A stretch of DNA of 64,000 nt from Actinomycetota bacterium (GCA_013178005.1 JABLXL010000005.1:1544-65543), one strand, 5' to 3'. Numbered from the stretch's first letter, positions 38,471 to 64,000 are shown. Made by a program: numbers and translations. Notes: generated by a model from the letters alone, not told the origin.

Positions 38471-38591
38471 GGATATCGTTTATGTATCTACGTTTACTTA
38501 AGGGCTTGCAATACCATATGATGTGGACGCAGGCTAGAGCTGCGCTAGCAGATGGCGGTGAAGATAATTCTTCTCGTGGCCATCCTCGCTC

Positions 38592-39592: not shown

Positions 39593-39814
39593 TCATCTCC
39601 TCCGGCCCTTTGCGTGGCGTGAGCCTTTATTGCCCTGCTCTCCGGCTGCGCCGGATTTAACCCACGCGTCCACTTCTTTCTTATCGAACTTCCATAGCCG
39701 GCCGATTTTATGGCCTGGCATCCGCCGCTCACTGATCCATTTATAGACCGTATCCCGCTTGACTCCGAGATGTTCAGCGATCTCGTCAACCGATAGCCAT
39801 CGGCCCTCCATCAT
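39593..39814 (-). CDS. excisionase / AlpA-family HTH DNA-binding protein (HTH_17)
   Basis: LSVDEIAEHLGVKRDTVYKWISERRMPGHKIGRLWKFDKKEVDAWV is a classic Xis/AlpA fold signature. Confidence 0.7.
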   Translation of the reverse strand: MMEGRWLSVDEIAEHLGVKRDTVYKWISERRMPGHKIGRLWKFDKKEVDAWVKSGAAGEQGNKGSRHAKGRRR

Positions 39815-40042
39815 TCGACCTCGCTCACTATCGCCTTCACCGTATGGCCTCCAACATCTTCTTCATCTTGGTTGATCGGTGCCCCGCGCTGCAATCCTTG
39901 CCGTCATCGTACCGAAATAACATAGCTTGCAAATCTACAATATATTGGTTTGAAGCCTAATGTCAAATTGTTTGTCCCTGTATTTTACCATTCTTTACGA
40001 ATATAACCGAAGTAATCATGGAATGACGGCCATTGCCTCATG

Positions 40043-40360
40043 CCCGGGACGGATTTCCGAGCTCCCGGCCATGGCGGGGAGTTGACCCCTTCGGCTTCCT
40101 CCCTCGCCCACCCCGGTCAGGTCATAGGGCAGAAACTGACAGCATGGAAGGAAAGCCATTACATCCTGCTTGGAACTGATTTCCAGCCCACTGGCTGCGG
40201 GTTTGATCGACCCTTCGGCCGTATCCGTTATCCGCCCGGGCCGGCGGGCAAGAGCTGAAAACATGGGAAGGGCGGCCCTTGTTTCCTGACTGGAACAGAT
40301 TCCCAACTCCCGGCTCCGGGCTTAATCGATCCCTCGGCCGTATCCGTCATCCGCCTGGGC
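40043..40360. repeat. right-hand set of tandem ~110-125-bp structured sub-repeats immediately downstream of nadE
   Basis: Units share ...ATCGA-CC-TCGGCCGTATCCGT-ATCCGCC-GGGCCGGGC-GGCGGGC. One unit carries the AAGAGCTGAAAACATGGGAAGGGCGGCCCTTGTTTC hairpin tail. Confidence 0.75.
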
Positions 40361-42125: not shown

Positions 42126-42369
42126 GCCCAGGATCCCGGCTCAGACGCCCGTCAACGGTATCCGCTTCGGGACCCTCGATCCAGCCTCCGCCATACCTAT
42201 AAGACGGGGAGGTGGTTGGCCAGTTCCCATTCCGCGACTGGGCGCGGCAGCGCTCCCGGTCGCGTATTCCCGCCGTCAGCCGGCCTTGGGGGCCGGGTCT
42301 TGGCACCCCTGTTCGATGCCGGTTTGCCCGCCGGCGCCGCGCCGGCCCTTGACCCGGCCCCCGCCATCC

Positions 42370-43698: not shown

Positions 43699-43809
43699 CT
43701 TTTGCTCCTTTCTCCCGCAAACCCGTTCACGGGTTCCGTTTCCCTGACTCCTGGATAAGATTCTCCCCTACCCGTGTTTCCATCCCTTTTCCGCACTGTT
43801 AAATCCTTG

Positions 43810-44148
43810 TTAAATGGCGTTGAAGCCGGACTCGCCGGTGCGGATGCGCACGGCGTTCTCCACCTCGTAGACGAAGATCTTGCCGTCGCCGATGTTGCCG
43901 GTGCGCGCCGCCCGGGTCACCGCCGCCAGCACCTTGGGTAGGTCCTCGTCCAGCACCACCGCCTCCAGCTTGAGCTTGGGCAGGAACTCCACGCGGTACT
44001 CCGCCCCCCTCCACATGTGGGTCACGCCCTTCTGCTTGCCGTGCCCCTTGACCTCGGTGATGGTCACGCCGGGGTAGCCCAGGGCGCGCAGCTCGTTCAT
44101 CACCGGCTCCAGGCGCTCCGGCCTGATGATGGCCTCGATCTTTTTCAT
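43810..44148 (-). CDS. glnK: nitrogen regulatory protein P-II (GlnK/GlnB)
   Basis: 112-aa PII signature (MKKIEAIIRPERL...T-loop RGAEYRV...). Immediately downstream of amtB, as expected for GlnK. Confidence 0.9.
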   Translation of the reverse strand: MKKIEAIIRPERLEPVMNELRALGYPGVTITEVKGHGKQKGVTHMWRGAEYRVEFLPKLKLEAVVLDEDLPKVLAAVTRAARTGNIGDGKIFVYEVENAVRIRTGESGFNAI

Positions 44149-44154
44149 GCTCCA

Positions 44155-45711
44155 TCACCCCCTCGCCGCGGCGATGTCCCCGCCGGCGCTCGCCACCGGC
44201 TCCGGCACCGGGAGGCTGATGCGGCTATCGTCGGTGTACGCGCTGACGCCCATCTCGTGCGCGTCCAGGCCGTCCACCTCCTCCTGGGGCGACACCCTGA
44301 TACCCTGCCACCGGTCCTGCAGTCGGAAGAAGAGGTAGGAGAGGCCGAACACGAAGGCCACGCAGGCAATCGCGCCGATGGCCTGCGCCGCCAGCTGCCC
44401 GGCGTCCCCGAAGAAAAGCCCCCGCACGGCTCCTTCGACGCCGTTGAGGCCGGCGCCATAGGTCCCGTCGGCGAACAGGCCCAGGGAGAGGACGCCCCAC
44501 AGGCCGTTCATGCCATGTACCGCGACGGCTCCCACCGGGTCGTCGATGCCCCGCCTTTCCAGGGCGAAGACCCCCACGCAGACCAGCACGCCGGCCACCG
44601 CCCCGATGATCAGCGACGCCCAGGAGGGCACGAAGGCGCAGGGGGCGGTCACTGCCACCAGGCCCGCCAGCATGCCGTTGGCGGTCATGGACGGGTCGGG
44701 CTTGCCGCATTTCCTCCACATGAAGAACATGGCGGCCAGGCATCCCGCGCACGCGGCCAGGAGCGTGTTCACCGCCACCACCGCCAGCCGCAGGTCGTTG
44801 CCGGAAAGCGTGCTGCCGGCATTGAACCCGAACCAGCCGAAGACGAGGATTATCACCCCGATTATGGCCATGGGCACGTTGTGGCCGGGGATGGCCCGCG
44901 GCTTGCCATCTCGGTCGAAGCGGCCGATGCGCGGCCCGATGACTATGGCGCCGGCCAGGGCGCAGATGCCGCCCACGGCGTGCACCACCGACGAGCCCGC
45001 GAAATCCACGAAGCCGTGGCCGAGGCCCAGGTTGGAGCCGAGCTGGGAAAGCCAGCCGCCGCCCCATACCCAGTGCCCGAACACGGGATAGAGGACCATG
45101 GACATGAAGAAACCGTAAACGACGAACGCCTTGAACTTCCACCTCTCGGCCATGGCCCCGGTGACGATGGTTGCGGCGGTGTCCATGAAGACCACCTGGA
45201 AGAGGAAGAAGAGGAACACCCCCACGTCGTACACGCCGCTCCCCGAGAGGGCGAACCCCTTGAGGCCCAGGATGGACCAGCCGCGGGCCACCTCCAGCTT
45301 GGCGTTGAGGATCTCCGCACCGCCCAGGGTGGCGAGTGCGCCCACCCCGCCGAACATCAGGGCGTAGCCCACCAGGAAATACCCCAGGGTGCCGATGGCG
45401 AAGATGGTGAAGTTGGTCATCATCACGTGCACGGCGTTGCGCTCCTGGGTGAACCCCGTCTCCACCATGGCGAAGCCGGCCTGCATGAAGAAGACGAGGA
45501 TGGCCCCCAGGAAGACCCAGATGAAATTAAGGGCTATCTTGCCGTGGCCGACTTCCTCGGAAAGCTCCCCCGCCAGGTCCTGCGAACCGCCCGTCTGCTC
45601 TCCCGTGGCGTCGGCCCTGGCCTTCCCCCCTCCGCCCGCCAGCGCGAGGAGAAGGAAACACAGCAGCACCCCTACGACCAGCGGTCCCCAACGGCGTAGA
45701 GCGATGACCAT
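44155..45711 (-). CDS. amtB: ammonium transporter Amt, with an N-terminal signal or extension
   Basis: Amt/MEP family signatures (DFAGG, twin-His region) and 11 TM helices. Start placed at the ATG with an AAAGGAGG RBS. Confidence 0.85.
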   Translation of the reverse strand: MVIALRRWGPLVVGVLLCFLLLALAGGGGKARADATGEQTGGSQDLAGELSEEVGHGKIALNFIWVFLGAILVFFMQAGFAMVETGFTQERNAVHVMMTNFTIFAIGTLGYFLVGYALMFGGVGALATLGGAEILNAKLEVARGWSILGLKGFALSGSGVYDVGVFLFFLFQVVFMDTAATIVTGAMAERWKFKAFVVYGFFMSMVLYPVFGHWVWGGGWLSQLGSNLGLGHGFVDFAGSSVVHAVGGICALAGAIVIGPRIGRFDRDGKPRAIPGHNVPMAIIGVIILVFGWFGFNAGSTLSGNDLRLAVVAVNTLLAACAGCLAAMFFMWRKCGKPDPSMTANGMLAGLVAVTAPCAFVPSWASLIIGAVAGVLVCVGVFALERRGIDDPVGAVAVHGMNGLWGVLSLGLFADGTYGAGLNGVEGAVRGLFFGDAGQLAAQAIGAIACVAFVFGLSYLFFRLQDRWQGIRVSPQEEVDGLDAHEMGVSAYTDDSRISLPVPEPVASAGGDIAAARG

Positions 45712-45904
45712 GACCGGACCTCCTTTCTCGCTCGGGTCGTCTCCTGCCAACCAAGTCTAAGGGCCGCTTTTTTCGGGGGTTTTTCACGTGCGTTAAGGTT
45801 TCGTGATCTTCTCGTTTCGAAAAAGTTAAACGCGGCGCCATCTGCTCACGAGCAACAGGCGGCCGGGGGTTTTTCCCCGCGGAGAGGCGGGCGCCAGTGT
45901 GATG

Positions 45905-46012
45905 AACCCGTTACGGGGTAGGCTTCAACGCGCAAAGACCCGTCGTCCCGTTACCGCGCCCTGGACATCGCACGAATCCGTTAACGGGGCCGGCGCCAAC
46001 GCGCAAAACGCC
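45905..46012. promoter_or_regulatory. three CCGTTA(A)C boxes, two of them within ~30-bp direct repeats (CCGTTACGGGGTAGGCTTCAACGCGCAAAG / CCGTTAACGGGGCCGGCGCCAACGCGCAAAAC) upstream of amtB
   Basis: Repeats seen directly, 200-300 bp upstream of the amtB start. Candidate nitrogen-regulator binding sites. Confidence 0.4.
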
Positions 46013-46069
46013 TGGGGGTTTTATACCATGAGGAGGGATTGTCGCATGGGACGGGCGCAGCCTGGACTT

Positions 46070-46729
46070 TCAATCCGGGGACACATGCTCGAAGATGTAG
46101 CCCACGCCGCGCACGGTGCGGATATAGGTATGGCCCTCCCGCTCGATCTTGGCGCGTATGCGGCGCACGTGCACATCTACGGTGCGGGAGCCTCCGAAGT
46201 AATCGTATCCCCAGACCTGCTCCAGGAGCATCTCGCGGGTGAACACCTTCCCCGGCCGGGAGGCGAGGAAATGCAGGAGCTCGAATTCCTTGAAGGTGAG
46301 CTCCACCCGCCTTCCCCCCACCCTCACCTCATAACGGTCCTCGTCTATCTCCAACTCCCCGGATCCCACGAGGGCTCGCACGGTTTCATCCCCACCCACC
46401 ATGCGGCGGATCCTTGCCCTTATCTCCTCCGCCGTCCCGTTATCGGCGACGAAGTCGTCTATATCCACGGCGCCGTCGAGGGTCCTTATCTGCTCGAAGC
46501 GCAGCACGGCGACCAGCCGCGCGCCTTCCGCCAGATCTCGCCGCAAGCCGCTCAAGAAGCCACGCCACTCCGCGCCCATCCCCGCGCAATCCGCCAGCAC
46601 CACATCACCGGGTGCCGTATTCGCGCTCCCATGCGGGGGAAAAGCCTCCACCGAGAAGCTTTCCTCCAGCACGCCCCGGAAGAATTCCCCACGTTCCCGG
46701 TCACAATGAAGAAAGACCTTGCCTGCCAT
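46070..46729 (-). CDS. OmpR/PhoB-family transcriptional regulator with an atypical receiver domain (GlnR-like)
   Basis: C-terminal winged-helix trans_reg_C (LTFKEFELLHFLASRPGKVFTREMLLEQVWGYDYF...RTVDVHVRRIRAKIE). The receiver lacks the canonical DD acidic pocket. Sits between the GOGAT genes and amtB. Confidence 0.6.
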   Translation of the reverse strand: MAGKVFLHCDRERGEFFRGVLEESFSVEAFPPHGSANTAPGDVVLADCAGMGAEWRGFLSGLRRDLAEGARLVAVLRFEQIRTLDGAVDIDDFVADNGTAEEIRARIRRMVGGDETVRALVGSGELEIDEDRYEVRVGGRRVELTFKEFELLHFLASRPGKVFTREMLLEQVWGYDYFGGSRTVDVHVRRIRAKIEREGHTYIRTVRGVGYIFEHVSPD

Positions 46730-46860
46730 TTTTCACCTGGTCGCCAAACCGGTTATCGCCTCCGACATACGTTCGCTCCGCCACAAGAGTGAAAGACCGA
46801 CCCCCCATGGGGGATCGGCATCCGTGCGCCGCTTCGCCGTTCCGGGATCCGGTGGCCTCG

Positions 46861-47658
46861 TCAGTACGCGTATAGCCCACCGAAGGGGCGGTGCGACTTG
46901 GCGTACAGCTTGATGAAGCCGGAGCCGAGTATCTCGTCGGCTTTGCCCCCGAAGTAGTTCGTGTATTCCTCCACGTGGGGCCGGATCATCTCCAGGTCGG
47001 CTTCCGAGGCCCGCTCCACCGCGGCCTCCTTTCCGAGCTGATGCTCCTCCACCTCCCCGCGCAGGAAGATGAGACCCCCGTGCATGCCGGTCCCGATATG
47101 GCGCGCCGCCAGTTTTGGTTTTCCTTTCTTTCCCAGCCCCAACACCAGCACCAGCCCGCCGGCCATGTACTCCCCCAGGAAGTCCTGGGTCTCTCCTCCG
47201 ATGACCAGAACGGGGACGTGCTTGCGGTACTCCTTCATGTGAATGGCGGCGCGGTAACCCACGCCGTCGCGTATGAAGATCTTGCCTCCCCTCATGCCCA
47301 TGGCCACGATGTCTCCCGCGCGCCCGTGGACCACGATGGTGCCGCTGTTCATGGTGTTCCCCACCCCGTCCTGGGCATTGCGGTCCACGGTGATCCTGGG
47401 CCCGTCCATGAAGGCGCCGAGGTCATTCCCGGGCACGCCGTGAACGGTGATGCGCACGGGCCTGCGTATCCCCGACCCGATGTAGCGCTGGCCGAAGACG
47501 TTCTCGAGCTCTATCTCCTCCAGGCCCTCCGCGGCCGCTCCCTTGACCATGTTGTTGAGCTCGCGGTAATGGAGCGTTCCGGCGTTTATCCTCACCTTGC
47601 CGTTCTCTCGCGCGAACACGCCCGGCAACCCGGCATGGTGGTCCACCTCGATCTTCAT
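46861..47658 (-). CDS. glutamate synthase GXGXG-domain protein (stand-alone alpha-subunit C-terminal domain, archaeal-type GltB3-like)
   Basis: Repeated GxGxG beta-helix pattern (GIRRPVRITVHGVPGNDLGAF, GTIVVHGRAGD, GGKIFIRDGVG). Confidence 0.7.
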   Translation of the reverse strand: MKIEVDHHAGLPGVFARENGKVRINAGTLHYRELNNMVKGAAAEGLEEIELENVFGQRYIGSGIRRPVRITVHGVPGNDLGAFMDGPRITVDRNAQDGVGNTMNSGTIVVHGRAGDIVAMGMRGGKIFIRDGVGYRAAIHMKEYRKHVPVLVIGGETQDFLGEYMAGGLVLVLGLGKKGKPKLAARHIGTGMHGGLIFLRGEVEEHQLGKEAAVERASEADLEMIRPHVEEYTNYFGGKADEILGSGFIKLYAKSHRPFGGLYAY

Positions 47659-47913
47659 GTCCTCATCACCCTTTTTCGCTCACGCCACCTTTTTTTGTTT
47701 TCTTCTCCGCCTATCGAGAATTTCCCTTCATATCTCTATTCTATACCCCTGTCAAACCCGCGCCCCCGGAAAGCCGTGTTCCCCCATGGAGACCATGAGC
47801 GTCAGCTATACCCCCGCCGGATGTCCCGATGCGGAGTCTTTTCCTTATGGCACTAGCCTCCCTGCTGCTATCATCTCGGCGGGAACCCACCACCTGAGGC
47901 CGGGCTCCCTTCC

Positions 47914-49425
47914 TCAGGCGCCGGCGTGCTTGATGCCCAGGATGTCCAGTTCCTCCTGGGTGAGCCCCACTCCGCGCAGGCGCAGCCGGTTGCCGCGCAG
48001 GCTCTCTATGGCGTTGATGCCCATGCCTCCCAGCATCTCCATGATCTCGTGCGACCACCCGGTGAGCAGGTTCACCAGTCGCCGCGTCCCCACGTCGGGG
48101 TTTAAGCGCTTGGAGAGGTAGGGGTCCTGGGTGGCGATTCCCCAGTTGCACTTTCCGGTGTAGCATTTCTGGCAAACGTGGCATCCCATGGCCACCAGGG
48201 CGGCGGTGCCGATATAGACGGCGTCGGCGCCCAGGGCGATGGCCTTGATGACGTCGGAGGAATTGCGGATGCCTCCCGCCACCACCACGCTGGCGCGGTT
48301 GCGTATGCCCTCCTCCCGCAGCCGCGTGTCCACCGCCGCCAGCGCCAGCTCTATGGGGATGCCCACGTTGTCGCGGATCATGGTGGGCGCCGCCCCCGTG
48401 CCGCCACGGATGCCGTCCAGGGCCACGATGTCCGCTCCCGCGCGCACTATTCCCGAGGCGATGGCGGCGGAGTTGTGCACCGCGGCGATCTTCACCGACA
48501 CCGGCTTCTCCCAGTGCGTGGCCTCTTTCAGGGCGTAGATAAGCTGGGCCAGGTCCTCGATGGAGTAGATGTCATGGTGCGGCGCCGGCGAGATGGCGTC
48601 CGTCCCCTTGGGTATCATGCGCGTGCGGGATATCTCCGCGCTCACCTTCTCCCCGGGGAGGTGGCCCCCGATGCCAGGCTTCGCGCCCTGGCCTATCTTG
48701 ATCTCCAGGGCTGCGGCCACCTCCAGGTAATCGGCATGCACCCCGAAACGCCCCGAGGCCACCTGGCATATGGTGTGGTCGCCGTACTTGTAGAGGTTGC
48801 GGTGCAGGCCGCCCTCGCCGGTGTTGTAGTAGGTGCCCATCTCCGTGGCCGCCCGGGCCAGGGACTCGCAGGCGTTGTAGCTTATGGCGCCGTAGGAGAT
48901 GGCGGAGAACATGATGGGGGTCTCCAGTCGCAACTGCGGGGTGAGCCTGGTCTCCAGGGAGGGCTTGCCTCCCTTCCTCCCGACCTTCACCACGTCCGGC
49001 TTGGCCCCCAGGTAGGTGCGCAGCTCCATGGGCTCGCGCAGGGGGTCGATGGACGGGTTGGTGACCTGGCTGGCGTCCAGGACGATGCGGTCCCAGTAGA
49101 TGGGGTAACCCTTGTCGCATCCCATGCCCGTGAGCAGGACACCGCCCGTCTCCGCCTGCCTGTAGATGTTGCGCAACACCTCCCCCGTCCAGTTGGCGTT
49201 GGGCGGGATCTGGGTGGGGTTATGGCGCACCACCAGGGCGTTGGTGGGGCACAGGGTTACGCAGCGCAGACAGCCCACGCACTTGCTCTCGTCGGCGAAG
49301 ACCGCGTCCTCCTCCTCGTCGTACCAGTGCACGTCAAAGGCACACTGCCTCGCGCAGACCTCGCAGCGGATGCACCGGTAATCGTCCCTTTCCACCAGGT
49401 ATTGCGGCAAAATATAACTCTTCAA
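47914..49425 (-). CDS. glutamate synthase FMN/Fe-S domain protein with an N-terminal 2x[4Fe-4S] ferredoxin (archaeal-type large-subunit central domain)
   Basis: N-terminal CIRCEVCARQC / CVGCLRCVTLCP, then a GltS FMN-binding TIM barrel (ISAMSYGAIS-like: FSAISYGAIS; GEGG; the C-x-C Fe-S ligand region MGCHVCQKC). Confidence 0.8.
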   Translation of the reverse strand: MKSYILPQYLVERDDYRCIRCEVCARQCAFDVHWYDEEEDAVFADESKCVGCLRCVTLCPTNALVVRHNPTQIPPNANWTGEVLRNIYRQAETGGVLLTGMGCDKGYPIYWDRIVLDASQVTNPSIDPLREPMELRTYLGAKPDVVKVGRKGGKPSLETRLTPQLRLETPIMFSAISYGAISYNACESLARAATEMGTYYNTGEGGLHRNLYKYGDHTICQVASGRFGVHADYLEVAAALEIKIGQGAKPGIGGHLPGEKVSAEISRTRMIPKGTDAISPAPHHDIYSIEDLAQLIYALKEATHWEKPVSVKIAAVHNSAAIASGIVRAGADIVALDGIRGGTGAAPTMIRDNVGIPIELALAAVDTRLREEGIRNRASVVVAGGIRNSSDVIKAIALGADAVYIGTAALVAMGCHVCQKCYTGKCNWGIATQDPYLSKRLNPDVGTRRLVNLLTGWSHEIMEMLGGMGINAIESLRGNRLRLRGVGLTQEELDILGIKHAGA

Positions 49426-49447
49426 GGCATTCCTCCTCCGCCGGCCC

Positions 49448-50599
49448 TCAGGCCGGCTCCGCCCCGCTGATGCTCAATACCTTCCCCCCCGTCTCCTCTT
49501 CCCTGGCGGCGGGCTTGATCAGCTCCGCCACCACCGGAACTCCGCCGTGCGGAATCCAGGTATCCTTGAGGGTGTCGTCCACCAGGTGCATGGGAGCCTC
49601 CTCGGAGGAGATGTACATGAAGTCCCCGTTGCGGCCCGCCACCAACGGCCTCAGCCGGATGCGGTCGGTGAGCCCGATCATCTGCTCGCGGTTGGAGATG
49701 ATGATGCTGAAGGGCCCGTTGAGGAGCAGGGAGCCGTATGACTGCCGAAGGGCCACGTGCGCCTCCCTTTCACGCGCCGGCATGCGGTCTATCTCCGACC
49801 ACAGGGGCGCCGCGAGCACCCGGGACATGTCCTCTATGGACAGCCCGTGCCGCCGCACCAGGAGGTCGACCGCGTAGGCTATCACCTCCGTGTCCGTGAA
49901 CAGGGTGCACTTGTACCCGTACATCTCCAGGTGACGCATGTTGATGCCGTAGGAGGATATCTCCCCGTTGTGCACCACCGACCAGTCGAGGATGTTGAAG
50001 GGATGCGCCCCTCCCCACCAGGCCTGGGTGTTGGTAGGGAACCTGCCGTGGGCCACCCATATGTATCCCTCGTACTCGTCGAGGCGGAAGAAACGCCCCA
50101 CGTCCTCCGGGAAACCCACTCCCTTGAAAACGCCCATGTCCTTGCCGCTGGAGAAGACGAAGGCCCCGTCTATGAACACGTTGATGTGCATCACCGCGCG
50201 CACCACGAAGTCGTCCACGTCCTCGAGGTCGCAGGCGATGCTCTCGCGGGGCTGCAGGAAATAGCGCCACAGCAGCGGGGGGTCGGAGACCCCCTCGCAG
50301 CTCCGGGTGGGTATGACCTCCGCCCCCTCCAGGGAGAAGGAATCCTTGAGGTAGCCCTCCGTTTCCTCCTTGGCGGCCTGGTCGTCGTACATGAGCTGGA
50401 AACAGTACAGCTCGGCATACTGGGGGTAGATGCCGTAGGCGGCGAAACCGCCCCCCAGGCCGTTGCTGCGCTCCTTCATGTTGGCGATGGCGGTGATCAT
50501 GGGATCGCCGTTGAACTTCTCGCCGCGCAGGTTCATCATCCCGAATATGGAGCAGCCGGAGAAATCCTTGTCGTCCCTTACGCGCGCGCCCCTGAGCAC
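49448..50599 (-). CDS. class-II glutamine amidotransferase domain protein (glutamate synthase amidotransferase domain, archaeal split type)
   Basis: Ntn GATase-II fold with nucleophile-Cys context (GCSIFGMM). The Cys lies about 15 residues after the predicted GTG start, which implies a propeptide or a misplaced start. Confidence 0.7.
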   Translation of the reverse strand: MLRGARVRDDKDFSGCSIFGMMNLRGEKFNGDPMITAIANMKERSNGLGGGFAAYGIYPQYAELYCFQLMYDDQAAKEETEGYLKDSFSLEGAEVIPTRSCEGVSDPPLLWRYFLQPRESIACDLEDVDDFVVRAVMHINVFIDGAFVFSSGKDMGVFKGVGFPEDVGRFFRLDEYEGYIWVAHGRFPTNTQAWWGGAHPFNILDWSVVHNGEISSYGINMRHLEMYGYKCTLFTDTEVIAYAVDLLVRRHGLSIEDMSRVLAAPLWSEIDRMPAREREAHVALRQSYGSLLLNGPFSIIISNREQMIGLTDRIRLRPLVAGRNGDFMYISSEEAPMHLVDDTLKDTWIPHGGVPVVAELIKPAAREEETGGKVLSISGAEPA

Positions 50600-50602
50600 C
50601 TC

Positions 50603-51916
50603 TCACACCCCCTCGTCCCTCGCGGCTCCGGCCTTCATGATCCCGGCCGCCGTCTCTTTTATACGCTCCTGCCTGACCGAGCGCGGCAGGTGTATGTGGC
50701 CGAAGGCCTCCTCCAGGAGGAAGTTCTTCACCCTGCGCACGTTGGCCCGTTCCTGGATGAGGCTGGTAAGTATGCCCGCGCGCTCCACGCGCCCCGCCAC
50801 GAGCATGCCCACGATGACGTCGCCTTGCAGCACCACCTTACGGTAGTCGCCTCCGTCCACCCGGCGCGCTATCACCTCGTAGCCGTCCTCGGGAGGGTTC
50901 ACGACGCCCGCGGAGAGCACCGGGAGGCCGAAGAACTCCACCGCGTTCATGGAATTGCACCCCGGGTAGGGGACCTCCCTTCCCGCCATGTTCAGGCCGG
51001 CGTACTTCCCCTGCAGGGCGGCCACGGGCCAGAGCGCGTTGATGGCAGGTTTTCCCAGCACGATATCCATGGCGCTCACCGCATCTCCCGCCGCGAAAAC
51101 ATCCTCCAGGGAGGTGCGCTGGTGCTCGTCCACCTCGATGCCATGGGGACAGTCAAGGCCCGCTCCCTCGGCCAGTTCCGCGCGCGGCCTCACCCCCACG
51201 GCCATGACCAGGAGGTCGAAGTCTATCTCGCCGCCGTCCTCGAGGGTCGCCTTGCCCTTTCCTCCCCCCGTGGACTCCAGGGCGGCCACGCCCTGCCCGG
51301 TGACGATGTCGATGCCCGCCTCGCGGCACCTCTCCCAGACCATGCGCGAGGCCTGTTCGTCCAGCGCCTGGGGGAGTACGCGCTCCATCTTCTCCACCAC
51401 CGTCACCTCGGCGCCGCGCGCCTCCGCCGCCTCCGCCGCCTTCATGCCTATAAGCCCCGCTCCCACCACCAGGACGCGCGCGGGCTTGGCGGTCCTTGCC
51501 AGCATGCGCTTGGCGTCGTCCCAGTTCACGAAGGTTATGTAGTCCACGTCCTCCAGCCCGGGAACGGGGGGGATGAAGGGCTTGAAGCCCGTCGCCAGCA
51601 GCAGCTTGCGCCACTTCACCTTCTCGTTATCCGCCGTGGTGAGGGTCTTTTTCCCGGCGTCAACCGCCTCGACCCTGGCGCCCTTGCGGAACTCCACCCG
51701 CATGGAGCGGTAGTAGCCGGAGGGGCGGTAGTACATCCCCTTGCTCTCTATCTGGCCAGCCACCAGGTAGGAGATGAGGGGGCGGGAATAGCAACGGTAT
51801 TTCTCCTCCGCGAAGAGGACGATGGACCCCTCCCGATCCACGCTGCGAATGGCGTCACAGGCGTTTATCGCCGCCGCCGAGTTGCCCACTATCGCGTAAT
51901 CGTACCTGGCCGCCAT
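50603..51916 (-). CDS. FAD/NAD(P)-dependent pyridine-nucleotide-disulfide oxidoreductase family flavoprotein (probable electron-donating partner of the split GOGAT)
   Basis: Two Rossmann dinucleotide motifs (YAIVGNSAAA, VLVVGAGLIGMKAAEAA) and a C-terminal dimerisation domain. Confidence 0.7.
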   Translation of the reverse strand: MAARYDYAIVGNSAAAINACDAIRSVDREGSIVLFAEEKYRCYSRPLISYLVAGQIESKGMYYRPSGYYRSMRVEFRKGARVEAVDAGKKTLTTADNEKVKWRKLLLATGFKPFIPPVPGLEDVDYITFVNWDDAKRMLARTAKPARVLVVGAGLIGMKAAEAAEARGAEVTVVEKMERVLPQALDEQASRMVWERCREAGIDIVTGQGVAALESTGGGKGKATLEDGGEIDFDLLVMAVGVRPRAELAEGAGLDCPHGIEVDEHQRTSLEDVFAAGDAVSAMDIVLGKPAINALWPVAALQGKYAGLNMAGREVPYPGCNSMNAVEFFGLPVLSAGVVNPPEDGYEVIARRVDGGDYRKVVLQGDVIVGMLVAGRVERAGILTSLIQERANVRRVKNFLLEEAFGHIHLPRSVRQERIKETAAGIMKAGAARDEGV

Positions 51917-51919
51917 GTC

Positions 51920-52357
51920 CTATTCCTCCACCATCAACAGGGCCTCGTTGGGGCAGTTGGCGACGCAGGCCGGCACCTCGAGGTCCGGGCACAGGTCGCA
52001 TTTCCCCACCGCCTTCCGCTCAGCCTCGTCGCGGCGCACGGCCCCGAATGGGCACACCAGGATGCAGGTCCAGCATCCCACGCAGCGTTCCGGGTCGTTG
52101 ACCACCGCTCCCGTTTCGGGGTCCTTGGACATCGCGCCCGAGAGGCACGCGGTCACGCAAGGGGCCTCCTCGCAATGCCGGCACTGCAACGCGAAGGATA
52201 CATGCCCTTCCTCCTCCACCTCGACCCGCTTTACCGGCCTCCTCTCGCTCTTGAAGGCCTTGATGATGTTCTTGCTCCTGGAGTGCTGCACGATGCAGTG
52301 TATCTCGCACAGGCGACACCCGATGCAGTACTCCTCGCGAGGCACGATTCTGATCAA
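51920..52357 (-). CDS. 4Fe-4S dicluster ferredoxin-like protein (HycB-like, multiple clusters)
   Basis: CIGCRLCEIHC, CRHCEEAPCVTAC, CVGCWTCILVCP and CDLCPD...CVANCP motifs. Confidence 0.7.
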   Translation of the reverse strand: MIRIVPREEYCIGCRLCEIHCIVQHSRSKNIIKAFKSERRPVKRVEVEEEGHVSFALQCRHCEEAPCVTACLSGAMSKDPETGAVVNDPERCVGCWTCILVCPFGAVRRDEAERKAVGKCDLCPDLEVPACVANCPNEALLMVEE

Positions 52358-52634
52358 AACGGTACCACCTTCTCTTTCCTCGGGCCGGGGTCAGGCGCCG
52401 GCTCCTCCCGCCCTCATCACCGCCTGCGTCACCACGCTGCGGGCATGGAAACACAAACATAATAAATGCAAACGGGGTCTAATACCATAATCCTGCGCGC
52501 CCTCGGGAAACGGCTTGGCGGTTATAGAGGCCCTCGCTGGATCCCATGGCGGCTCGCCGTCCATCGCCGACCGGTCCCGGAGCCTCGGCTTACCTAAACC
52601 GTGTCGGGCACGGCGGGACACTCCCGTAACAAAC

Positions 52635-52663
52635 AATAGGCAATAGGTTACCTATTGCCTATT
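52635..52663. promoter_or_regulatory. perfect 13-3-13 inverted repeat AATAGGCAATAGG-TTA-CCTATTGCCTATT in the divergent GOGAT-operon / NrpR-like promoter region
   Basis: Seen directly. Lies about 20 bp upstream of a TTGTCA...TAATAT promoter-like element and about 70 bp upstream of the regulator's TTG start (RBS AAAGGAG). Confidence 0.6.
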
Positions 52664-52733
52664 TAATACGTTTTATTATATATTGTCAAGCAGAATGGCG
52701 GCTAATATTTACCGTTAAAGGAGTGAAAAGCCC

Positions 52734-53723
52734 TTGCTGGAACGGAAAACGCTGGCCATCCTGGAGGTGCTAAGGGAAGCGCGGGAGCCCCTGGGTGCGA
52801 GGGCCATTTCACAGGAACTCTCCCGCCGGGGAATCGAGCTCAACGAGAGGACGGTGCGCTACCACCTGCTGCACCTGGACGAGCGCGGTCTCACCCGGCT
52901 GGAGGGCAGGCGGGGCCGCTCGCTCACCGATGCCGGCTTGCGGGAGATCGAGGGCGCCATGGCCGTGGACAGGGTGGGGTTCGTGAACTCGCGCATCGAC
53001 GACCTCGCCTGCCGCTCCGATTTCAACCTCGCTGAGCGAAGGGGCCGCCTGGCGATCAACATCACCTTCCTCCCACTGGAGCAGGAGCGGCGCGCGGTCG
53101 AGGCGATGCGGGCCGCCTTCGAGGCGGGCTTCTGCCTCTCGGACCTGGCGCTGCGCGCCGGGCCGGGAGAGCGGGCGGGAGACATGGAGGTGCCCGCGGG
53201 GATGGTCGGCTGGGGCACCGTCTGCAGCGTAACTCTGAACGCGGTGTTCCTGCGCCACGGAATACCGGTGGAATCGAGTTTCGGCGGCCTTCTCGAGATC
53301 CGCGAGGGCAGGCCCGTGCGCTTCACCGAGATCATAAGCTACGCGGGCTCCAGCCTGGACCCCATCGAGATCTTCATCAAGGGCAAGATGACCAGCGTGC
53401 ACGCCGCGGCCACCGAGGGCGACGGAAGGATCTGCGCCTCCTTCCGGCTCATTCCCGCCTCCGCCTTCGATAACGCGGCAGAGGTCGCGGAAAGGATGAA
53501 GGAGGCGCGCCTCGGGGGGATGATCCTCCTGGGAAGGCCGGGACACCCACTTATGGAGGTGCCCGCCGGCAGGGACAGGGTGGGCCTGGTGGTCGCGGGA
53601 GGCCTCAACCCGCCCGCGGCAGCGGAGGAGATGGGGGTGGACACCTTCTCGCGCGCCATGGCCACCCTGGTGGACTACTCCTCGCTCTCCCCTTTCTCCT
53701 CCCTGGCTAGGCGCATCCGTTGA
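52734..53723 (+). CDS. NrpR-like nitrogen regulator (N-terminal winged HTH plus DUF128/NRD-type domain)
   Basis: N-terminal wHTH (LAILEVLREAREPLGARAISQELSRRGIELNERTVRYHLLHLDERGL) followed by a domain resembling the NRD (DUF128) of methanogen NrpR. The nitrogen-cluster context supports this. TTG start. Confidence 0.5.
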   Translation: MLERKTLAILEVLREAREPLGARAISQELSRRGIELNERTVRYHLLHLDERGLTRLEGRRGRSLTDAGLREIEGAMAVDRVGFVNSRIDDLACRSDFNLAERRGRLAINITFLPLEQERRAVEAMRAAFEAGFCLSDLALRAGPGERAGDMEVPAGMVGWGTVCSVTLNAVFLRHGIPVESSFGGLLEIREGRPVRFTEIISYAGSSLDPIEIFIKGKMTSVHAAATEGDGRICASFRLIPASAFDNAAEVAERMKEARLGGMILLGRPGHPLMEVPAGRDRVGLVVAGGLNPPAAAEEMGVDTFSRAMATLVDYSSLSPFSSLARRIR

Positions 53724-55519: not shown

Positions 55520-56217
55520 CCATGGAGACGCGCGGCACTTTGGAAGGGGAAGAGAAGGTCGAGCGCGGAGGCGGACCCGCCCAGGGGGATGCGGGAGAGG
55601 TCGGGAGAGGGACGCGTGGGGCCTTCCTGCCCCTGGAGGACCTCCTCTACTGGATGGAGAGGGAGGAGGGCTGCGATTCGGAGCCGCTCGGTTACCTTGG
55701 AGCCCACTTCCCCACCGGCTGCCGCTACTGCATCTGAGGCCGGGCGCCACGCCGGATGGAAGCCAGGCGACTGGGGGGATTCGCGTAAATCGGTTTCGAC
55801 ATCCATATATTACCATCCTGGTACTTGGTATAGGCGGGCGGCGGGAGATCGCGCCTCGGGGTGTTGCGGCATACAGCAAGGAGCGGGCACCCGCGCCTAT
55901 TCTGGCCAGGCATTCGGAAGCCGCCATCAAAGTGCCGGGCTTAGGCGGGGGAGGGGGATGGCGGAACATGGCACCGAGGCAATTAAGCCCCACTCGGGTT
56001 CGTGCGTGGATTCGGGGCAGGCATTTGGAAGCCGCCATCCAAGCACTGGGCTTACGCGAAGGGCGGTGGGATCGCGGAGCATGGCGCCGAGCTAATTCAG
56101 CCCGACTCCAGCTCGCGCGTAGATCGGGGTGATTCGTGGAACCCGGGGCGGACGCGTTCCTGGCTTGCGGTGGTTTAACCCGCAAGGAAAGCGGGCAAAA
56201 ATAGAGCAGGGGAGCCA

Positions 56218-59068: not shown

Positions 59069-59243
59069 CGACTTCCCTTTCCTTTACCAAACCAGTCACC
59101 TGCAAAGCTTGTTGTTTGCCATGCCCGATCCGGGATCATGCCCCGGCAAGCATCGGCGCGAGGTCGCTTCGCGCCTTAAGAAGCTCTTCTTTCCGCCGCG
59201 GTCGGCCGAAGCGCCTGTCCCCACCCGCAACAGCGCCCGCAAG

Positions 59244-59801
59244 TCAACCTCCGGACATCTTCCTGTAAGCCCTCGAGAGCTCGAGGTTCATGTCCGCCAC
59301 CCTTCTCGCGAACTCCCCGGCTTGATCATCCAGGTCCGCGAGGCGCAGGGCCTTCTCCGGCGTGTCCACGACGCTTCCGGATGCGACCAGTCTTCCCGCG
59401 TCCACCTCCACCCCTTCAACCACAGCCACTTGCCTGATAACCGTCCCATCCCCGATGGAGGCGTTGAAAATCACTGAGCCGAACCCCACGAAACAGCCGT
59501 CCCCTATCCTGCAAGGGCCATGTATTATGCACCCATGGGCAAGGGATGCTCTTCGGCCGATAACCACGGATGAACCCTTCAGCGCGTGGATTATCACGCC
59601 GTCCTGTACGTTGCTCCCCTCCCCTATCTCGATCGAGCTTTCCGGCTCGTCCGCCCTCAACACCGCGCATGGCCCTATGAAGACCTCGTCGCCGACGATC
59701 ACCTTGCCGACGAGCAGGGCTGTCGGGTCGATGTAGGCGCTTCCCGATATCATGGGCGATTCCCCCTGGGGATTGGGCCTTCCCTTCACGTTTCCTTTCA
59801 T
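59244..59801 (-). CDS. gamma-class carbonic-anhydrase-like / left-handed beta-helix hexapeptide-repeat protein
   Basis: Hexapeptide repeats with the His ligand context of gamma-CA/YrdA/PaaY (VIIHALKG...LAHGCIIHGP). Its ATG overlaps the PEPC stop (ATGA). Confidence 0.7.
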   Translation of the reverse strand: MKGNVKGRPNPQGESPMISGSAYIDPTALLVGKVIVGDEVFIGPCAVLRADEPESSIEIGEGSNVQDGVIIHALKGSSVVIGRRASLAHGCIIHGPCRIGDGCFVGFGSVIFNASIGDGTVIRQVAVVEGVEVDAGRLVASGSVVDTPEKALRLADLDDQAGEFARRVADMNLELSRAYRKMSGG

Positions 59802-61327
59802 CCCATGAAACCTCTCAACACCGCGGTCTCCTCCACCATCTCTGAAACGTTCCTGCCCTCCTCGAGGAGCAGGAGGATGTTCGAGGTCATGTTCCTGTGG
59901 ATAAGGTGCTTGTTGTGAGAGGGCTCCGTCTGGATGCCCAGGACCCCCTCCAGCCACTTCAGGTCCTCCTCCACTCCGGCCAGGGCCGGGAACCTGCCCT
60001 TCAGCCGCGCGATGTTCTCCCGGTTCACGAAGGCGCACGCTTCCTCCGCGTCCCGCTTGAGGTTCACGTACAAGCGGCTCAGCGACTCGCTCAACCCCAC
60101 GTCGAAGGCCTCCCTCAATGCCCTCCCGGTTCCTATCACCTCGGGGGGTATGCCCAGGGAGTAAAGCGAGGCGGTGAAAGTGATTGCGCGGGGCAAGCTC
60201 ACCCCCTTGGTAATCTCCCTGGAATACCCGAACAAGCCGGTATGCAGCCTCCTCTCCCTCCGCCTCGGTATGTGTCTCGACATCTCGATGATCAAGGGCG
60301 CGATCTCGATGATAGTGGCGCGATAGTGCTTTTTAAAGACGGCGATGAGCTTTTCCGCGTCCCTCGCCTCCTCGCCGCTCATCTCCGGAGCCCTCGAGCC
60401 CTTGGCAAGGACCCGGTTCAAAGCCTTGACCGCCTTGGTCACGTCCTCGGCGGGATGGTCATAGCGGAAGGACGACTGCACGGTGGCGGTGCGCACGCCT
60501 GGGTATTCCTCCAGGAACCGTTTCACGGTGAGCGGGGACAGGTTGCCGCGGAAAGGCACGCTGCCGCAGCCGATGATGGGATAGACCTCCAACCCGCTCT
60601 CCTCCGCCGCCCGGTAAGCCCTGGAAAGGCCCACCTTGGCCCCCAGCACCGCGGGCACCAGGCCGTAGTTGAGAGCGGGGTCGGAGCGGGCGATGAACGG
60701 CCTCACGTATTCCAGTTCCTTTATCCTCGCCAGGCCTTTTCTCCGGTAAAGGGATACGTATCTACGGATGAGGTCGCCCAGCCCCATCATGTCCGGTATG
60801 TCCTCCACCAGGGGGATTATCTCGATTATGGGAGGGTTGCCGCTGCCGATCCTCCTCTCGGGATCCTTCCTGATCAACCGCGCGAAATCGGAGTAGACGC
60901 CCTGCAGGTACACGAGCTGATCCGCCGAGGTGGTCATGGGGAGGATTATCTCGAACACCGGCGGGCAGTGCAGGCCGATGTCCTTCGCGATGTCGTGGGC
61001 GGCGAGGATGTTGGCGAAGGCGCGCAGGATGCGGTAGCTGCCCTTCTCCACCCATATATTGGGAAGGCGGTAGGTGAGGAAGATATCCCTGCCCAGCGCC
61101 TTCTTCCTGAAGTAGGCGAGATCCTCCTCGAACACGCGCTCGATGACCGCCTCGTCTACGTATTTGCCCTCCCAGTCCCACATGAACTCGTGGCATCCGA
61201 GCGCCTCGAAGGCGACCAGGCACTCCTTCACCTCGTCCCGGCTGTCTATGAAGCTCTTTCCGAGCCAGAAGGCCGCGCAAGCATTATCCGGGTGTTGCGT
61301 GGCCATGGTAGTGGGTATGCTTCTCAT
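59798..61327 (-). CDS. ppcA: archaeal-type phosphoenolpyruvate carboxylase (PepcA, PEPcase type 2)
   Basis: About 509 aa, with the N-terminal ATQHPDN motif characteristic of the short archaeal-type PEPC family. Confidence 0.65.
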   Translation of the reverse strand: MRSIPTTMATQHPDNACAAFWLGKSFIDSRDEVKECLVAFEALGCHEFMWDWEGKYVDEAVIERVFEEDLAYFRKKALGRDIFLTYRLPNIWVEKGSYRILRAFANILAAHDIAKDIGLHCPPVFEIILPMTTSADQLVYLQGVYSDFARLIRKDPERRIGSGNPPIIEIIPLVEDIPDMMGLGDLIRRYVSLYRRKGLARIKELEYVRPFIARSDPALNYGLVPAVLGAKVGLSRAYRAAEESGLEVYPIIGCGSVPFRGNLSPLTVKRFLEEYPGVRTATVQSSFRYDHPAEDVTKAVKALNRVLAKGSRAPEMSGEEARDAEKLIAVFKKHYRATIIEIAPLIIEMSRHIPRRRERRLHTGLFGYSREITKGVSLPRAITFTASLYSLGIPPEVIGTGRALREAFDVGLSESLSRLYVNLKRDAEEACAFVNRENIARLKGRFPALAGVEEDLKWLEGVLGIQTEPSHNKHLIHRNMTSNILLLLEEGRNVSEMVEETAVLRGFMG

Positions 61328-61677
61328 CCGCCGTCCCCCTATGTCCGTCCGGCCGCCGTCCCCCGCTCTCGCGGGATGCTGAGAACCTTTCTCCGAGCGG
61401 GTTCAGTGCGAGGCCTGGGTAAAGTAAGTGTCATATTAACACAGGAAAGGGGCGTCCGACAAAGCGCTTCCTCAACTAGTTTCGTCACCCTCCATGATCC
61501 ACTCGCTCCCGGGCAATGGTGCGGCCGCGGCGACGCTGCACTTTACCCCCGGCCGCCCGCACGGACGGTATCACCCTTGACCGACGCTGAGCAGGCGATC
61601 GTTGCTTTCCCCGCGAAGCGGATTTGCGGTATCGTGATAACCGAAGCGCATCTTCTTGTTATAAAGGGGGGATTCTC

Positions 61678-62100
61678 ATGACCATGATCTCGTGTCCCGA
61701 CTGCGGCAAGGACGTCTCGGACCTGGCGCCGGCCTGCCCCAACTGCGGCTATCCCGTCGCCGAGGAGGCGGAAAAGGCGGCGGCGGAAAAGGAGAAAAAG
61801 AAGGGCCTCGAAGGTTTCGTCGATTTCATCCGAAAGCAGGGCGTGGTGGGCCTGGCCATCGGCTTCATCGTGGGCGTGGCCACGGGCACCGTGGTCAACT
61901 CCCTGGTCACCGACCTGATCAACCCGATCATCGGCGCGATCGTCGGGCAGGGCAGCCTGGACACGCTGACCTTCCACATCGGAGACGCCGTGTTCAACTA
62001 CGGCCACTTTATCGGGGTGGTGATCAACTTCGTGATCATCCTGGCCGTAGTCTATTTCGGCTTCAAGGCGCTGCGCCTGGAAAAACTCGACAAGAAATAA
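61678..62100 (+). CDS. mscL: large-conductance mechanosensitive channel MscL with an N-terminal Cys4 zinc-ribbon extension
   Basis: CPDCG...CPNCG zinc ribbon, then the MscL TM1 (VVGLAIGFIVGVATGTVVNSLVTDLINPIIG) and TM2. ATG with an AAAGGGGGG RBS. Confidence 0.7.
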   Translation: MTMISCPDCGKDVSDLAPACPNCGYPVAEEAEKAAAEKEKKKGLEGFVDFIRKQGVVGLAIGFIVGVATGTVVNSLVTDLINPIIGAIVGQGSLDTLTFHIGDAVFNYGHFIGVVINFVIILAVVYFGFKALRLEKLDKK

Positions 62101-62406
62101 TTCGCCAAGCGGCTTTCGCCGCCCGCATGCAGCTGCCGTACGAAAGGGCGCGGGATCCCGCGCCCTTTTCCTTGCCCTGCCATTTAGTCCCGCACTTGAT
62201 GCATCCCTGGGCGGCATCGCCGAGGGGGCGCCGGTCGGGCGCTCCCGCTTTCTCACCGGACCTCGCGGCCGGCATGAATGCCGTCCTCATGCTCCGCCAG
62301 CGACTCTATGGTGCCGTCCAGCCCGCAGGAGGCGGTGGTGTGCTCCGCCGGAACCATACCGCTCGGTCCGGTGGCGCCGTGCCTCGCGACAGGCGGGAAA
62401 ACAGCC

Positions 62407-63756
62407 TCAATGCTCCGCCAGCGACTCTATGGTGCCGTCCAGCCCGCAGGAGGCGGTGGTCTCCTTGAAGGTGCCCTCCCACATGCCGATGGCCACCGCC
62501 AGCTCCTGGTGGTCCTGGGCGTACTCGTGGATGGGGATTCCGCACATGGTGGCCTCGATGGCCTGGCGGAATGCCCGCGCGCCCGCCGTCGGTCCCATGG
62601 GGTGGGCGTGGATGCCGCCTCCGGAGCCGATCATAATCTCCTTCCCCAGGTCCGCCACGCACACCGGCACCATGTCCGGGGTGATGCCTCCCGAGGGCAT
62701 GGGCATGGTCGGCTTCAGGTTATGCAGGGGATAGTGCATGACGTCGGCGGTGTAGACGAAGCGGTCCTTAAGGTAGGGCGCCTTGCCGTAGGGCGCGGGG
62801 AAGACGATGGCGTCGGCCCCCGCCAGGCGGGGAAGCTTGCCCAGCACCAGGTGGGAGGCGATACCGGAGATGGGCGACTCGTAGAGGGCGCCTGCGCAGT
62901 CCATGTGGGCGAGGATGGGCACGTTGATGTCCGGATCCTCGGCCAGGGTCTGCAGCGCCGGGAGCCCCACCGCCAGGTAATTGACCATGATGGCGTTGGC
63001 GCCGGCGTCCACCACCCGCTTGGCGATCTCGAACATCTTGGGGATGTTGTCCGATATGTTCACCGTGTACAGGGTGTGCTCCCCCGTCTCCTCGTAGACC
63101 CGCTTCTCCATGGCCATGTAAGCCCTGACCCGGTCCTCGCAGCGGTTGAAGGCCATGTCCGCGATGAGCTCGTCGTCCTTGATGACGTCGCACCCGCCCA
63201 GGGCGGCCTCGTAGAAGAGCTTCTCCCCGATCTCGCAGGAGTATCCGGTGCAGGGCTTGATCATGTTATTGAGCAAGGGGCGGTGCTCCTTCATCCCCAG
63301 CGCCTCGTAAATGCCGTCGATGCCGAACTTGGGGCCCCCGAAACCGTCGGTGTAGCTCTTGGGGAACCACAGGTCGATGAGCTTAATCTTTCCACCCATG
63401 GAAATATTTCCCACCACGGCGGTAAGCAGCATGGGGATCTGGTGCTCTATGTTGCGCACGGGGAAGGCCACCTGCACTACGTAGGTCCGCTCCTCCACCT
63501 CCTTGGGCACCTCGAACTCGTAGAAAGGCACCTCGTGGATGGCGATGACCTTGGCCACGTGCTTCGCCCTAACCTCCGGCGTCTCGCCCGGAACCGCGGT
63601 CCAGGTGCCGGTGGACTGCTCCACCGCCAGGAAGGGCGCCAGGTAGTACATGATCATGTCCCTGGGCAGAGCCGCGTAGTAGGTGGCGATGATGAAATCA
63701 TCGTCCTCTATGCCCTCCGGCAAAGCCTTGGGCTGCGCCTCGTAGTACAGCATCAT
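62407..63756 (-). CDS. RuBisCO large-subunit-like protein (probable form IV RLP)
   Basis: RuBisCO fold with K175-like IKP, the carbamylation motif GGCDVIKDDE and SGGGIH. The KPK second Lys is replaced (IKPC) and the R295 equivalent is Met (HMDCAG), consistent with an RLP. Confidence 0.65.
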   Translation of the reverse strand: MMLYYEAQPKALPEGIEDDDFIIATYYAALPRDMIMYYLAPFLAVEQSTGTWTAVPGETPEVRAKHVAKVIAIHEVPFYEFEVPKEVEERTYVVQVAFPVRNIEHQIPMLLTAVVGNISMGGKIKLIDLWFPKSYTDGFGGPKFGIDGIYEALGMKEHRPLLNNMIKPCTGYSCEIGEKLFYEAALGGCDVIKDDELIADMAFNRCEDRVRAYMAMEKRVYEETGEHTLYTVNISDNIPKMFEIAKRVVDAGANAIMVNYLAVGLPALQTLAEDPDINVPILAHMDCAGALYESPISGIASHLVLGKLPRLAGADAIVFPAPYGKAPYLKDRFVYTADVMHYPLHNLKPTMPMPSGGITPDMVPVCVADLGKEIMIGSGGGIHAHPMGPTAGARAFRQAIEATMCGIPIHEYAQDHQELAVAIGMWEGTFKETTASCGLDGTIESLAEH

Positions 63757-63878
63757 CCTCTCCTCCTCATGGTCTATTCTTCATCTTCAAGTCAAATATT
63801 CCCGTCTTGACGATCACTCCCGGTTGTCTCCTTCACCCCCTCGATTTACGCGCCATCTTCCGTCCAACCTTTTCTTCC

Positions 63879-64000
63879 TCAAGCCTCGCAGGCTTCCTCT
63901 CCCTCGTTGAGCATGCGGCAGACCCCGGTGAGGTTGCCGTACAGCCTGCGGAAGACGCCGTAGAGCTCCTCGTATTCGTCGCAGCATCCCGGGTCGGGCT
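63879..64000 (-). CDS. 3' end of an unidentified CDS running off the window edge
   Basis: GC3-rich open frame ending at a TGA. The roughly 40 C-terminal residues are visible (…LYGNLTGVCRMLNEGEEACEA). Confidence 0.3.
   Translation of the reverse strand, partial: PDPGCCDEYEELYGVFRRLYGNLTGVCRMLNEGEEACEA

Follow-up and report, generated by a model that had tools for sequence, protein, structure and literature searches.

A stretch of 64,000 nucleotides from an Actinomycetota bacterium (GCA_013178005.1, JABLXL010000005.1:1544-65543), hereafter the window, contains a gene for a RuBisCO-like protein (RLP) whose last 51 sense nucleotides are repeated without a single difference in the intergenic DNA just downstream. 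We designate the gene end copy A (62410-62460, minus strand) and the intergenic pseudo 3' end copy B (62289-62339, minus strand); all coordinates are those of the whole 64-kb window, and L-numbers (e.g., L001, L013, and L095) denote the related loci with which it was compared. The repeat is confirmed to be a real, non-random duplication, and it is specific to this lineage. As far as the sequence can tell, local duplication, an event of a known type, is its most likely origin. The explanation that we favor, on balance, is that copy B is a nonfunctional pseudo-copy formed by local duplication over the stop codon, the core of which was later homogenized by gene conversion.

The repeated RLP gene end and its relatives

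A pattern search of the window finds perfect matches to the 51-mer at exactly two sites (62289-62339 and 62410-62460, both reported on the plus strand), and none arose in 100 dinucleotide-preserving shuffles. The exact repeat of about 50 bp noticed in a preliminary description of this DNA is therefore borne out, at the same two sites, although the positions given there (62291-62341 and 62409-62459) were 1 to 2 nt off and a reported interval of 105 bp was wrong: the copies lie 121 nt apart from start to start, the gap between them is 70 nt, and copy B starts 67 nt past the TGA stop codon of the RLP gene (62407-62409). Allowing one 1-nt indel, at the stop codon, lengthens the match to 56 nt.

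Within the 121-nt register, identity changes abruptly along the repeat. The core is identical at 51/51 positions, while the first 33 nt beyond the stop agree at 20/33 (62256-62288 versus 62377-62409), a score reached at only 0.13% of window positions, where the flank background is 8.6 +/- 2.7 per 33 nt; the step from core to flank is highly significant (Fisher P = 9e-7). The 33 stop-proximal nucleotides of the spacer are thus the diverged counterpart of the flank of copy B (62256-62288, minus strand). On the gene-body side, ungapped comparison of 62340-62376 with 62461-62497 yields 11/37 identities, which is background. Similarity accordingly spans 84 to 89 nt of the 121-nt period, the other 32 to 37 nt being at background when ungapped and aligning weakly when gaps are allowed. 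Same-sense copies this close together, with similarity far above chance, characterize a local direct duplication.

Copy A comprises the last 17 sense codons (TTASCGLDGTIESLAEH) of an open reading frame (ORF) on the minus strand (62407-63756), in agreement with the earlier assignment of the second copy to the RLP C terminus. This ORF encodes 449 amino acids (aa), matches the Pfam families RuBisCO_large_N and RuBisCO_large, and finishes ...ETTASCGLDGTIESLAEH before its TGA. Its closest matches in the PDB (4nas, 2oek, and 2zvi) are form-IV RLPs, or 2,3-diketo-5-methylthiopentyl-1-phosphate (DK-MTP-1-P) enolases, of the MtnW type. Because these structure alignments end at residue 426, the duplicated tail lies outside the conserved RLP domain and fold. 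Because the protein of all close relatives ends ...AEH* (...ESLAEH* at the same place), copy A is the native gene end.

The host is a "Candidatus Solincola"-like member of the Actinomycetota from a hot spring, with Ca. S. daggyaiensis as its best genome match (94%) and a best metagenome match at 95%. A downstream copy of the RLP gene end was found at three of the 156 loci tested, namely, this locus (as L001), L013, and L095. It is absent from the closest relatives, L002 and L093, in which the spacer downstream of the gene measures ~105 to 150 nt versus 306 nt here; with relatives that are single-copy and have a shorter spacer, the duplication is the derived state. (A closer relative at the MscL gene, L167, ends short of the informative region.) The five closest relatives differ from the core at 7 to 11 of its 51 sites, chiefly third codon positions for four of these relatives, and the core is therefore not simply frozen by constraint.

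The other two carriers of a repeated RLP gene end provide a parallel. L013 contains an exact 140-nt unit in 2.6 copies, 100% identical, at its RLP 3' end (1747-2110), and L095 contains a 109-nt copy with 94.5% identity ~141 to 144 nt downstream (~1017-1266). The two genomes are 89 to 93% identical overall, their distal junctions are orthologous, and they have in common a derived ATG at an ATC codon of the gene; an alignment of both loci reveals that, in the core, the copies of each genome bear that genome's own substitutions. Because the cores are genome-specific and the junctions orthologous, this is the mark of an old duplication kept alike by gene conversion: paralogues are closer to each other than to orthologues, between orthologous flanks, which is the pattern of concerted evolution. 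The distal copies in both genomes lie within ATG-initiated small ORFs. A common origin with the duplication in the window was considered and rejected, since the repeat boundaries fall at different codons (ungapped alignment, equal-length protein tails). By these alignments, the duplication in L013 and L095 is an independent event in another clade of the Actinomycetota.

Copy B sits inside a 306-nt intergenic spacer that separates the RLP gene from a convergent neighbor, a gene for a zinc-ribbon plus MscL channel protein (61678-62100, plus strand; Pfam), and lies upstream of a perfect 26-nt palindrome (62143-62168), a terminator-like hairpin between the convergent genes that is kept in some relatives (L082 and L087-L089). 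The 70-nt spacer between the copies (62340-62409, minus strand) consists of the stop codon plus 67 nt, has a GC fraction of 0.70, contains no ORF of note, and matches neither the rest of the window nor any of 160 related loci. A 34-aa ORF (MVPAEHTTASCGLDGTIESLAEHEDGIHAGREVR; 62253-62357, minus strand) contains copy B in the codon phase of the RLP gene. Because this phase is kept, a deletion between the repeats would append EDGIHAGREVR to RLP; given the two direct repeats, a 121-bp deletion allele encoding RLP plus these 11 residues should recur, with the predicted junction ...AAGGAG/ACCACC...GAGCAT/GAGGACGG. An imperfect 15-nt inverted repeat surrounds copy B (62254-62268 and 62359-62373; 87% complementary).

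Proposed local duplication and gene conversion, and competing explanations

The favored explanation can be laid out as a sequence of steps. A head-to-tail local duplication of at least 84 to 89 nt, with a period of 121 nt, would have arisen across the RLP stop codon by replication slippage, unequal exchange, or template switching. It would have been tolerated because the gene-proximal unit retains an intact ORF and stop codon. The noncoding parts of both units would then have drifted to ~60% identity, and the coding-derived core would have been kept at, or recently reset to, 100% by short-tract conversion, with the gene copy under selection as the donor. Similar events would have hit several other gene ends of this lineage. 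We infer the originating mechanism, that conversion acted in this genome, and that copy B lacks a function.

Two features of the data would follow from such a history. The identity step would fall at the stop codon because the coding part, which evolves slowly under selection, stays alike enough to convert while the flanks drift. Surviving duplications would straddle gene ends because selection removes intragenic events and because units of 120 to 210 nt exceed most spacers here. The preliminary description had offered "slipped repair" as one possible origin; a local duplication of that kind fits better than mobile elements do, but it is insufficient alone, since gene conversion is needed to explain a 100% core beside flanks of 60%. 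In its direct short-range copies (121 nt), its single selected and intact copy, its homogenized core, and its diverged flanks, the RLP locus resembles known duplications by slippage or unequal recombination followed by conversion, and the clustering of the L013 and L095 copies by genome resembles known systems of concerted evolution. The RLP locus differs from typical slippage duplications in that only ~70% of the unit is recognizable, and the events in the window are concentrated at 3' ends and unusually dense.

Several observations weigh against this explanation. With only 84 to 89 of 121 nt recognizably similar, and the 32 to 37 nt on the gene-body side at background, the structure is not a clean tandem. 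Some of the sibling cases described below are not simple tandems either; at a junction of HGD-D dehydratase genes, a 97-nt repeat (98%) surrounds a unique 103 nt. The case for conversion at this locus comes from one copy pair, and recent re-copying would look alike; concerted evolution in the window is read indirectly, from the 51/51 core against the 20/33 flank and from relatives that vary at 7 to 11 of 51 sites. Because no strain of this species lacking the duplication turned up, the ancestral state is read from species 94 to 95% identical in protein. The enrichment of such duplications comes from 64 kb, and the comparator loci are all RLP-gene neighborhoods. Finally, an ORF runs through copy B in frame, which leaves a function possible.

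The competing explanation that survives best, although we consider it unlikely, is that a gene end of 51 to 56 nt was copied once and recently, without any conversion, by a microhomology-driven template switch or as templated filler in break repair, the likeness of the flanks being incidental. A core at 100% with sharp edges is what such an event would leave, 15 nt of the distal flank recur inverted in the spacer, which could mark a template switch, and the HGD-D case is likewise sharp-edged with unique filler. Against these points stands the 20/33 flank, which lies at the same register and has a score reached so rarely in the window; moreover, no template for the 37-nt "filler" was found in the window, and L013 and L095 demonstrate that such duplications can persist for long and be homogenized.

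A broader proposition, which we regard as improbable, is that a process of this lineage targets gene 3' ends and copies their last 40 to 380 nt past terminators, with template switching or break repair at terminator hairpins as a candidate mechanism, and that some of the copies, among them copy B and those of L013 and L095, are retained and held identical to the parent gene because they act as small ORFs or as recombination cassettes for alternative C termini.

Somewhat less probable still is that the repeats are the scar of an integrative element that carried a gene 3' end, attL/attR-like repeats whose interior was deleted to 70 nt. Integrative elements carrying replacement 3' ends create attL/attR duplications, as is established for tRNA genes, the tmRNA gene, and some protein genes. 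The RLP locus resembles these in that the gene 3' end is repeated downstream, the gene is intact, and relatives have an "empty site," and its topology is like that of the nadE locus, where a 1.7-kb island lies between 377-nt repeats and the sister spacers measure 125 and 75 nt. It differs in lacking an element, an integrase, and foreign composition: only 70 nt of 70%-GC sequence separate the repeats, and half of this spacer is homologous to the distal flank and so part of the duplication, which duplication predicts and foreign DNA does not. Pfam searches of the 51 ORFs of the window detected no integrase, recombinase, reverse transcriptase, or DDE transposase; the only mobility-type matches are a Y1_Tnp (IS200/RAYT-like) domain ~33 kb away and an HTH_17 domain in the nadE island. 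In a limited test, a 31-mer of the repeat had no exact match in IMG/VR viral contigs. With no cargo in the 70 nt, no nearby integrase or recombinase, and no attP match, the reading of these repeats as attL and attR of an element is not borne out. Cycles of insertion and excision had also been suggested in the preliminary description; excision is an unlikely source of the RLP duplicate because precise excision takes the duplicate away. The suggestion that elements with replacement 3' ends are responsible holds in part for nadE, the only case whose repeats enclose a mobile island, and fails at RLP, where the GC-rich spacer looks native.

It is very unlikely that the repeat is an artefact of assembly or strain mixture, in which an assembler joined two downstream alleles. 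The source is a metagenome-assembled genome (MAG), and flanks at 60% do resemble diverged alleles. An NCBI contig of 5.75 kb (DYEB01000769.1), however, is identical to window positions 59178-64000 across all 4823 nt compared, including both copies and the spacer, so that two assemblies agree base for base; the RLP protein is recorded on a 92-kb contig, and the window was drawn from a longer contig. Logan unitigs of two sequencing runs, SRR6186653 and SRR28264343, agree with the window without a mismatch and both end at 62318, which is 30 nt (k-1 at k=31) into copy B. This shared breakpoint fits a true repeat because a k=31 graph must branch where the 51-mer has two left-hand contexts, although two alleles would also be expected to break unitigs at the repeat. 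The junction from spacer to copy B has just 9 nt in common with the gene context; reads containing the junction are therefore needed for any assembler to traverse it. Also counting against an artefact are the analogous structures of L013 and L095, which come from independent samples, and the fact that the larger k-mers of common metagenome assemblers exceed the 51 nt of the repeat.

We hold it equally doubtful that copy B is functional, whether as a small gene for a free RLP tail, as a C-terminus-switch cassette that adds EDGIHAGREVR, or as an RNA-level signal. In favor of a function, each of the three lineages has an ORF that starts with ATG and reads through the distal copy in frame (34 aa here, 41 aa for L095, and one more in L013), the derived ATG is common to L013 and L095, where the duplication has outlasted 8 to 11% sequence divergence, and the L095 copies show six differences, of which four are synonymous. 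On the other side, there is no convincing ribosome-binding site, the 34-aa ORF has no Pfam match, and perfect nucleotide identity suggests conversion over protein-level selection. A consensus scan of the repeat region detected neither promoter nor terminator; the sole match in an Rfam scan was one tRNA (20754-20825), with none at the repeat; and although the arms of the inverted repeat pair in an RNA fold, the overall fold of the region is no more stable than that of shuffles (z = -0.97). None of the 15 members listed for the protein cluster is a fused variant of 460 aa, the sibling cases elsewhere in the window show decay through stops and frameshifts, and most relatives have no copy at all.

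A few known systems were compared and set aside. Diversity-generating retroelements (DGRs) likewise place a second copy of a gene 3'-end repeat in nearby noncoding DNA, but a template/variable repeat pair is rejected here, given zero mismatches, no adenine bias among the sibling cases, no reverse transcriptase (RVT) domain, and targets that are housekeeping enzymes. A CRISPR-like array is rejected because there are just two copies and they are coding-derived; a known RNA or riboswitch, because Rfam finds none and the fold does not exceed shuffles; and a copy of a repetitive extragenic palindromic (REP) or REPIN element, because self-BLAST joins 27.9, 29.3, and 33.3 kb and not 62.2 to 62.5 kb. 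The mycobacterial interspersed repetitive units (MIRUs) are minisatellites with intergenic tandem units of 40 to 100 nt that overlap the flanking stop and start codons. The likeness to MIRUs extends to the Actinomycetota host and to units of ~100 nt that hold the upstream gene end, and the nadE arrays described below (120- to 124-nt units, five copies) behave likewise. The RLP repeat differs in having two copies only, derived from the local gene, with no dispersed consensus; its unit extends over the stop codon, but the further loci of like sequence that membership in a family of this general definition would entail were not found.

Gene-end duplications elsewhere in the window

The preliminary description proposed that re-duplication of gene ends is a recurrent process in this genome. 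Within this window, the proposal stands. Strong 3'-end copies, defined by comparing the last 200 nt of each gene with the 600 nt downstream (BLAST E<1e-8), accompany five of 51 genes (DUF192, flavodiiron, glnA, RLP, and one REP-related case) versus 7 of 700 random placements, and the nadE gene and the HGD-D dehydratase junction provide further cases. The excess over random has P ~1e-4, or ~2e-3 without the REP-related case, with the caveat that the BLAST word size was 7 for the genes and 11 for the random control. Gene 5' ends are touched by one event only, and five events involve 3' ends versus none confined to a 5' end. There are 6 clusters of short-range repeats in the 64 kb (4 without REP elements) versus ~1.0 expected from 966 kb of comparators, which corresponds to P = 6e-4 for all clusters and 0.019 without REP. 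For these 64 kb, set against RLP-gene neighborhoods, the 3' bias and the density of duplications are suggestive.

The individual cases differ in size and state of decay. The gene for a DUF192 protein (10204-10638) is followed directly after its stop codon by a 38-nt copy with 89% identity (10166-10203; period 125 nt). The flavodiiron gene (23683-24867) has a copy of ~95 nt with 89% identity (23484-23574; period 211 to 213 nt) that contains an in-frame TAG and lies beyond the terminator hairpin of the gene. The glnA gene (42370-43698) has a 56-nt copy with 86% identity (42203-42257; period 174 nt) that bears an indel and keeps a sister-like TTATAG ending. These pseudo 3' ends thus represent varied stages of decay (in-frame stop, indel, 86 to 89% identity), and the diverged pairs exhibit mixed substitution spectra with no adenine-specific pattern.

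At the HGD-D dehydratase junction (26403-26699), the 97-nt direct repeat (98%, two mismatches; period 200 nt) takes in the stop codon of dehydratase gene 1, the 40 nt that link the two genes, and 37 nt at the start of dehydratase gene 2. The repeats enclose the unique 103-nt segment (26500-26602, GC 0.51), which has no match in the window; the same junction in sister L168 holds an unrelated spacer of 260 nt and no repeat. For the RLP, HGD-D, flavodiiron, and glnA cases, a templated origin of the spacer is rejected, since the rest of the window contains no source.

The three duplications that could be checked against sister genomes (glnA, nadE, and RLP) are absent from them. The spacer between glnA and nadE measures 107 to 113 nt in L168 (Ca. 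S. daggyaiensis) and L170 versus 244 to 271 nt here, and neither of these syntenic loci contains a direct repeat. Both glnA units match the sister spacer, and because the window spacer exceeds it by about one unit of 174 nt, the gain in length fits a tandem duplication. Exact-product look-ups of the flavodiiron, HGD-D, and nadE genes returned no match, and literature searches returned nothing on such duplications in this lineage.

By itself, the 51-mer leaves RLP biology unchanged, and its value is as a marker, in that 64 kb of genome hold six gene-end duplications of different ages. If the pattern were to extend genome-wide, this uncultured thermophilic actinobacterium would offer a natural system for the origin of short duplications, the selective filter at gene boundaries, and homogenization. 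Annotators would likewise be warned that, in MAGs of this kind, short ORFs and "gene fragments" located past a gene end may be relics of duplication.

One further repeat in the window is a tandem of 113-nt units (55899-56129; 2.1 copies, 79%) without an Rfam match. It sits in an unusually long spacer of 698 nt between an ABC-2 permease gene and a gene of the acetoacetate decarboxylase family.

The nadE island, REP-like repeats, and other loci

The nadE gene (40347-42125) has the largest copy, 377 nt with 86% identity at a distance of 2.08 kb. These direct repeats (38092-40544) are 92% identical in the nadE-coding part and 80% in the noncoding part, and between them lies the low-GC island (38468-40173), which encodes a HepT toxin (38592-38942), an MntA antitoxin (38935-39231), and an HTH_17 excisionase-type protein (39593-39814) and contains no integrase. 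An independent Logan contig, L162, matches window 38351-40388 exactly. The spacer between nadE and the Band_7 gene is 2455 nt here versus 125 nt in L168 and 75 nt in L170. Because the distal fragment resembles the nadE gene of the window itself most (92%, versus 84% for that of the sister), the pseudo-copy is an internal duplication and not a displaced native end. A xenologous replacement of nadE, suspected from a 93% BLAST match between the sister nadE end and the window pseudo-copy, is rejected on the same figures, together with an identity of ~78% between all pairs of nadE genes.

Minisatellite-like arrays accompany the nadE repeats at 37986-38296 and 40139-40367. Their units of 120 to 125 nt (five copies in total, 65 to 87% identity), including units of 120 to 124 nt, begin with the last nadE codons (GCCCGCCGGCCCGG...) and hold a terminator-like hairpin (AAGGGCCGCCCTT).

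A RAYT-like gene (REP-associated tyrosine transposase; 28054-29070, minus strand; 338 aa; Pfam Y1_Tnp) occurs in DNA with a local GC content of 42 to 51% and is bracketed by inverted copies of a 34- to 37-nt REP-like repeat (GGCCTAGGGGTCAAGGCTGGCCATCGGCCTAAGG). The copies comprise three direct ones (27912-28077), one inverted (29333-29366), and two more at 33337-33422; the first provides the TAG stop codon of the second dehydratase gene. The dehydratase gene of sister locus L168 lies directly next to a GyrI-like gene. Since the segment at ~28.0 to 33.4 kb (the RAYT gene, two unknown ORFs, and FtsX/ABC genes) is absent there, it is a lineage-specific insertion bounded by these REP-like repeats.

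Two additional features of the window are notable for an actinobacterium. A nitrogen assimilation cluster (42370-53723) comprises glnA, P-II, AmtB, and archaeal-style split glutamate synthase subunits and is adjoined by an NrpR-type regulator (52734-53723; Pfam NRD1_2 and HTH_12). The phosphoenolpyruvate carboxylase (59798-61327) is of the archaeal type (PF14010).

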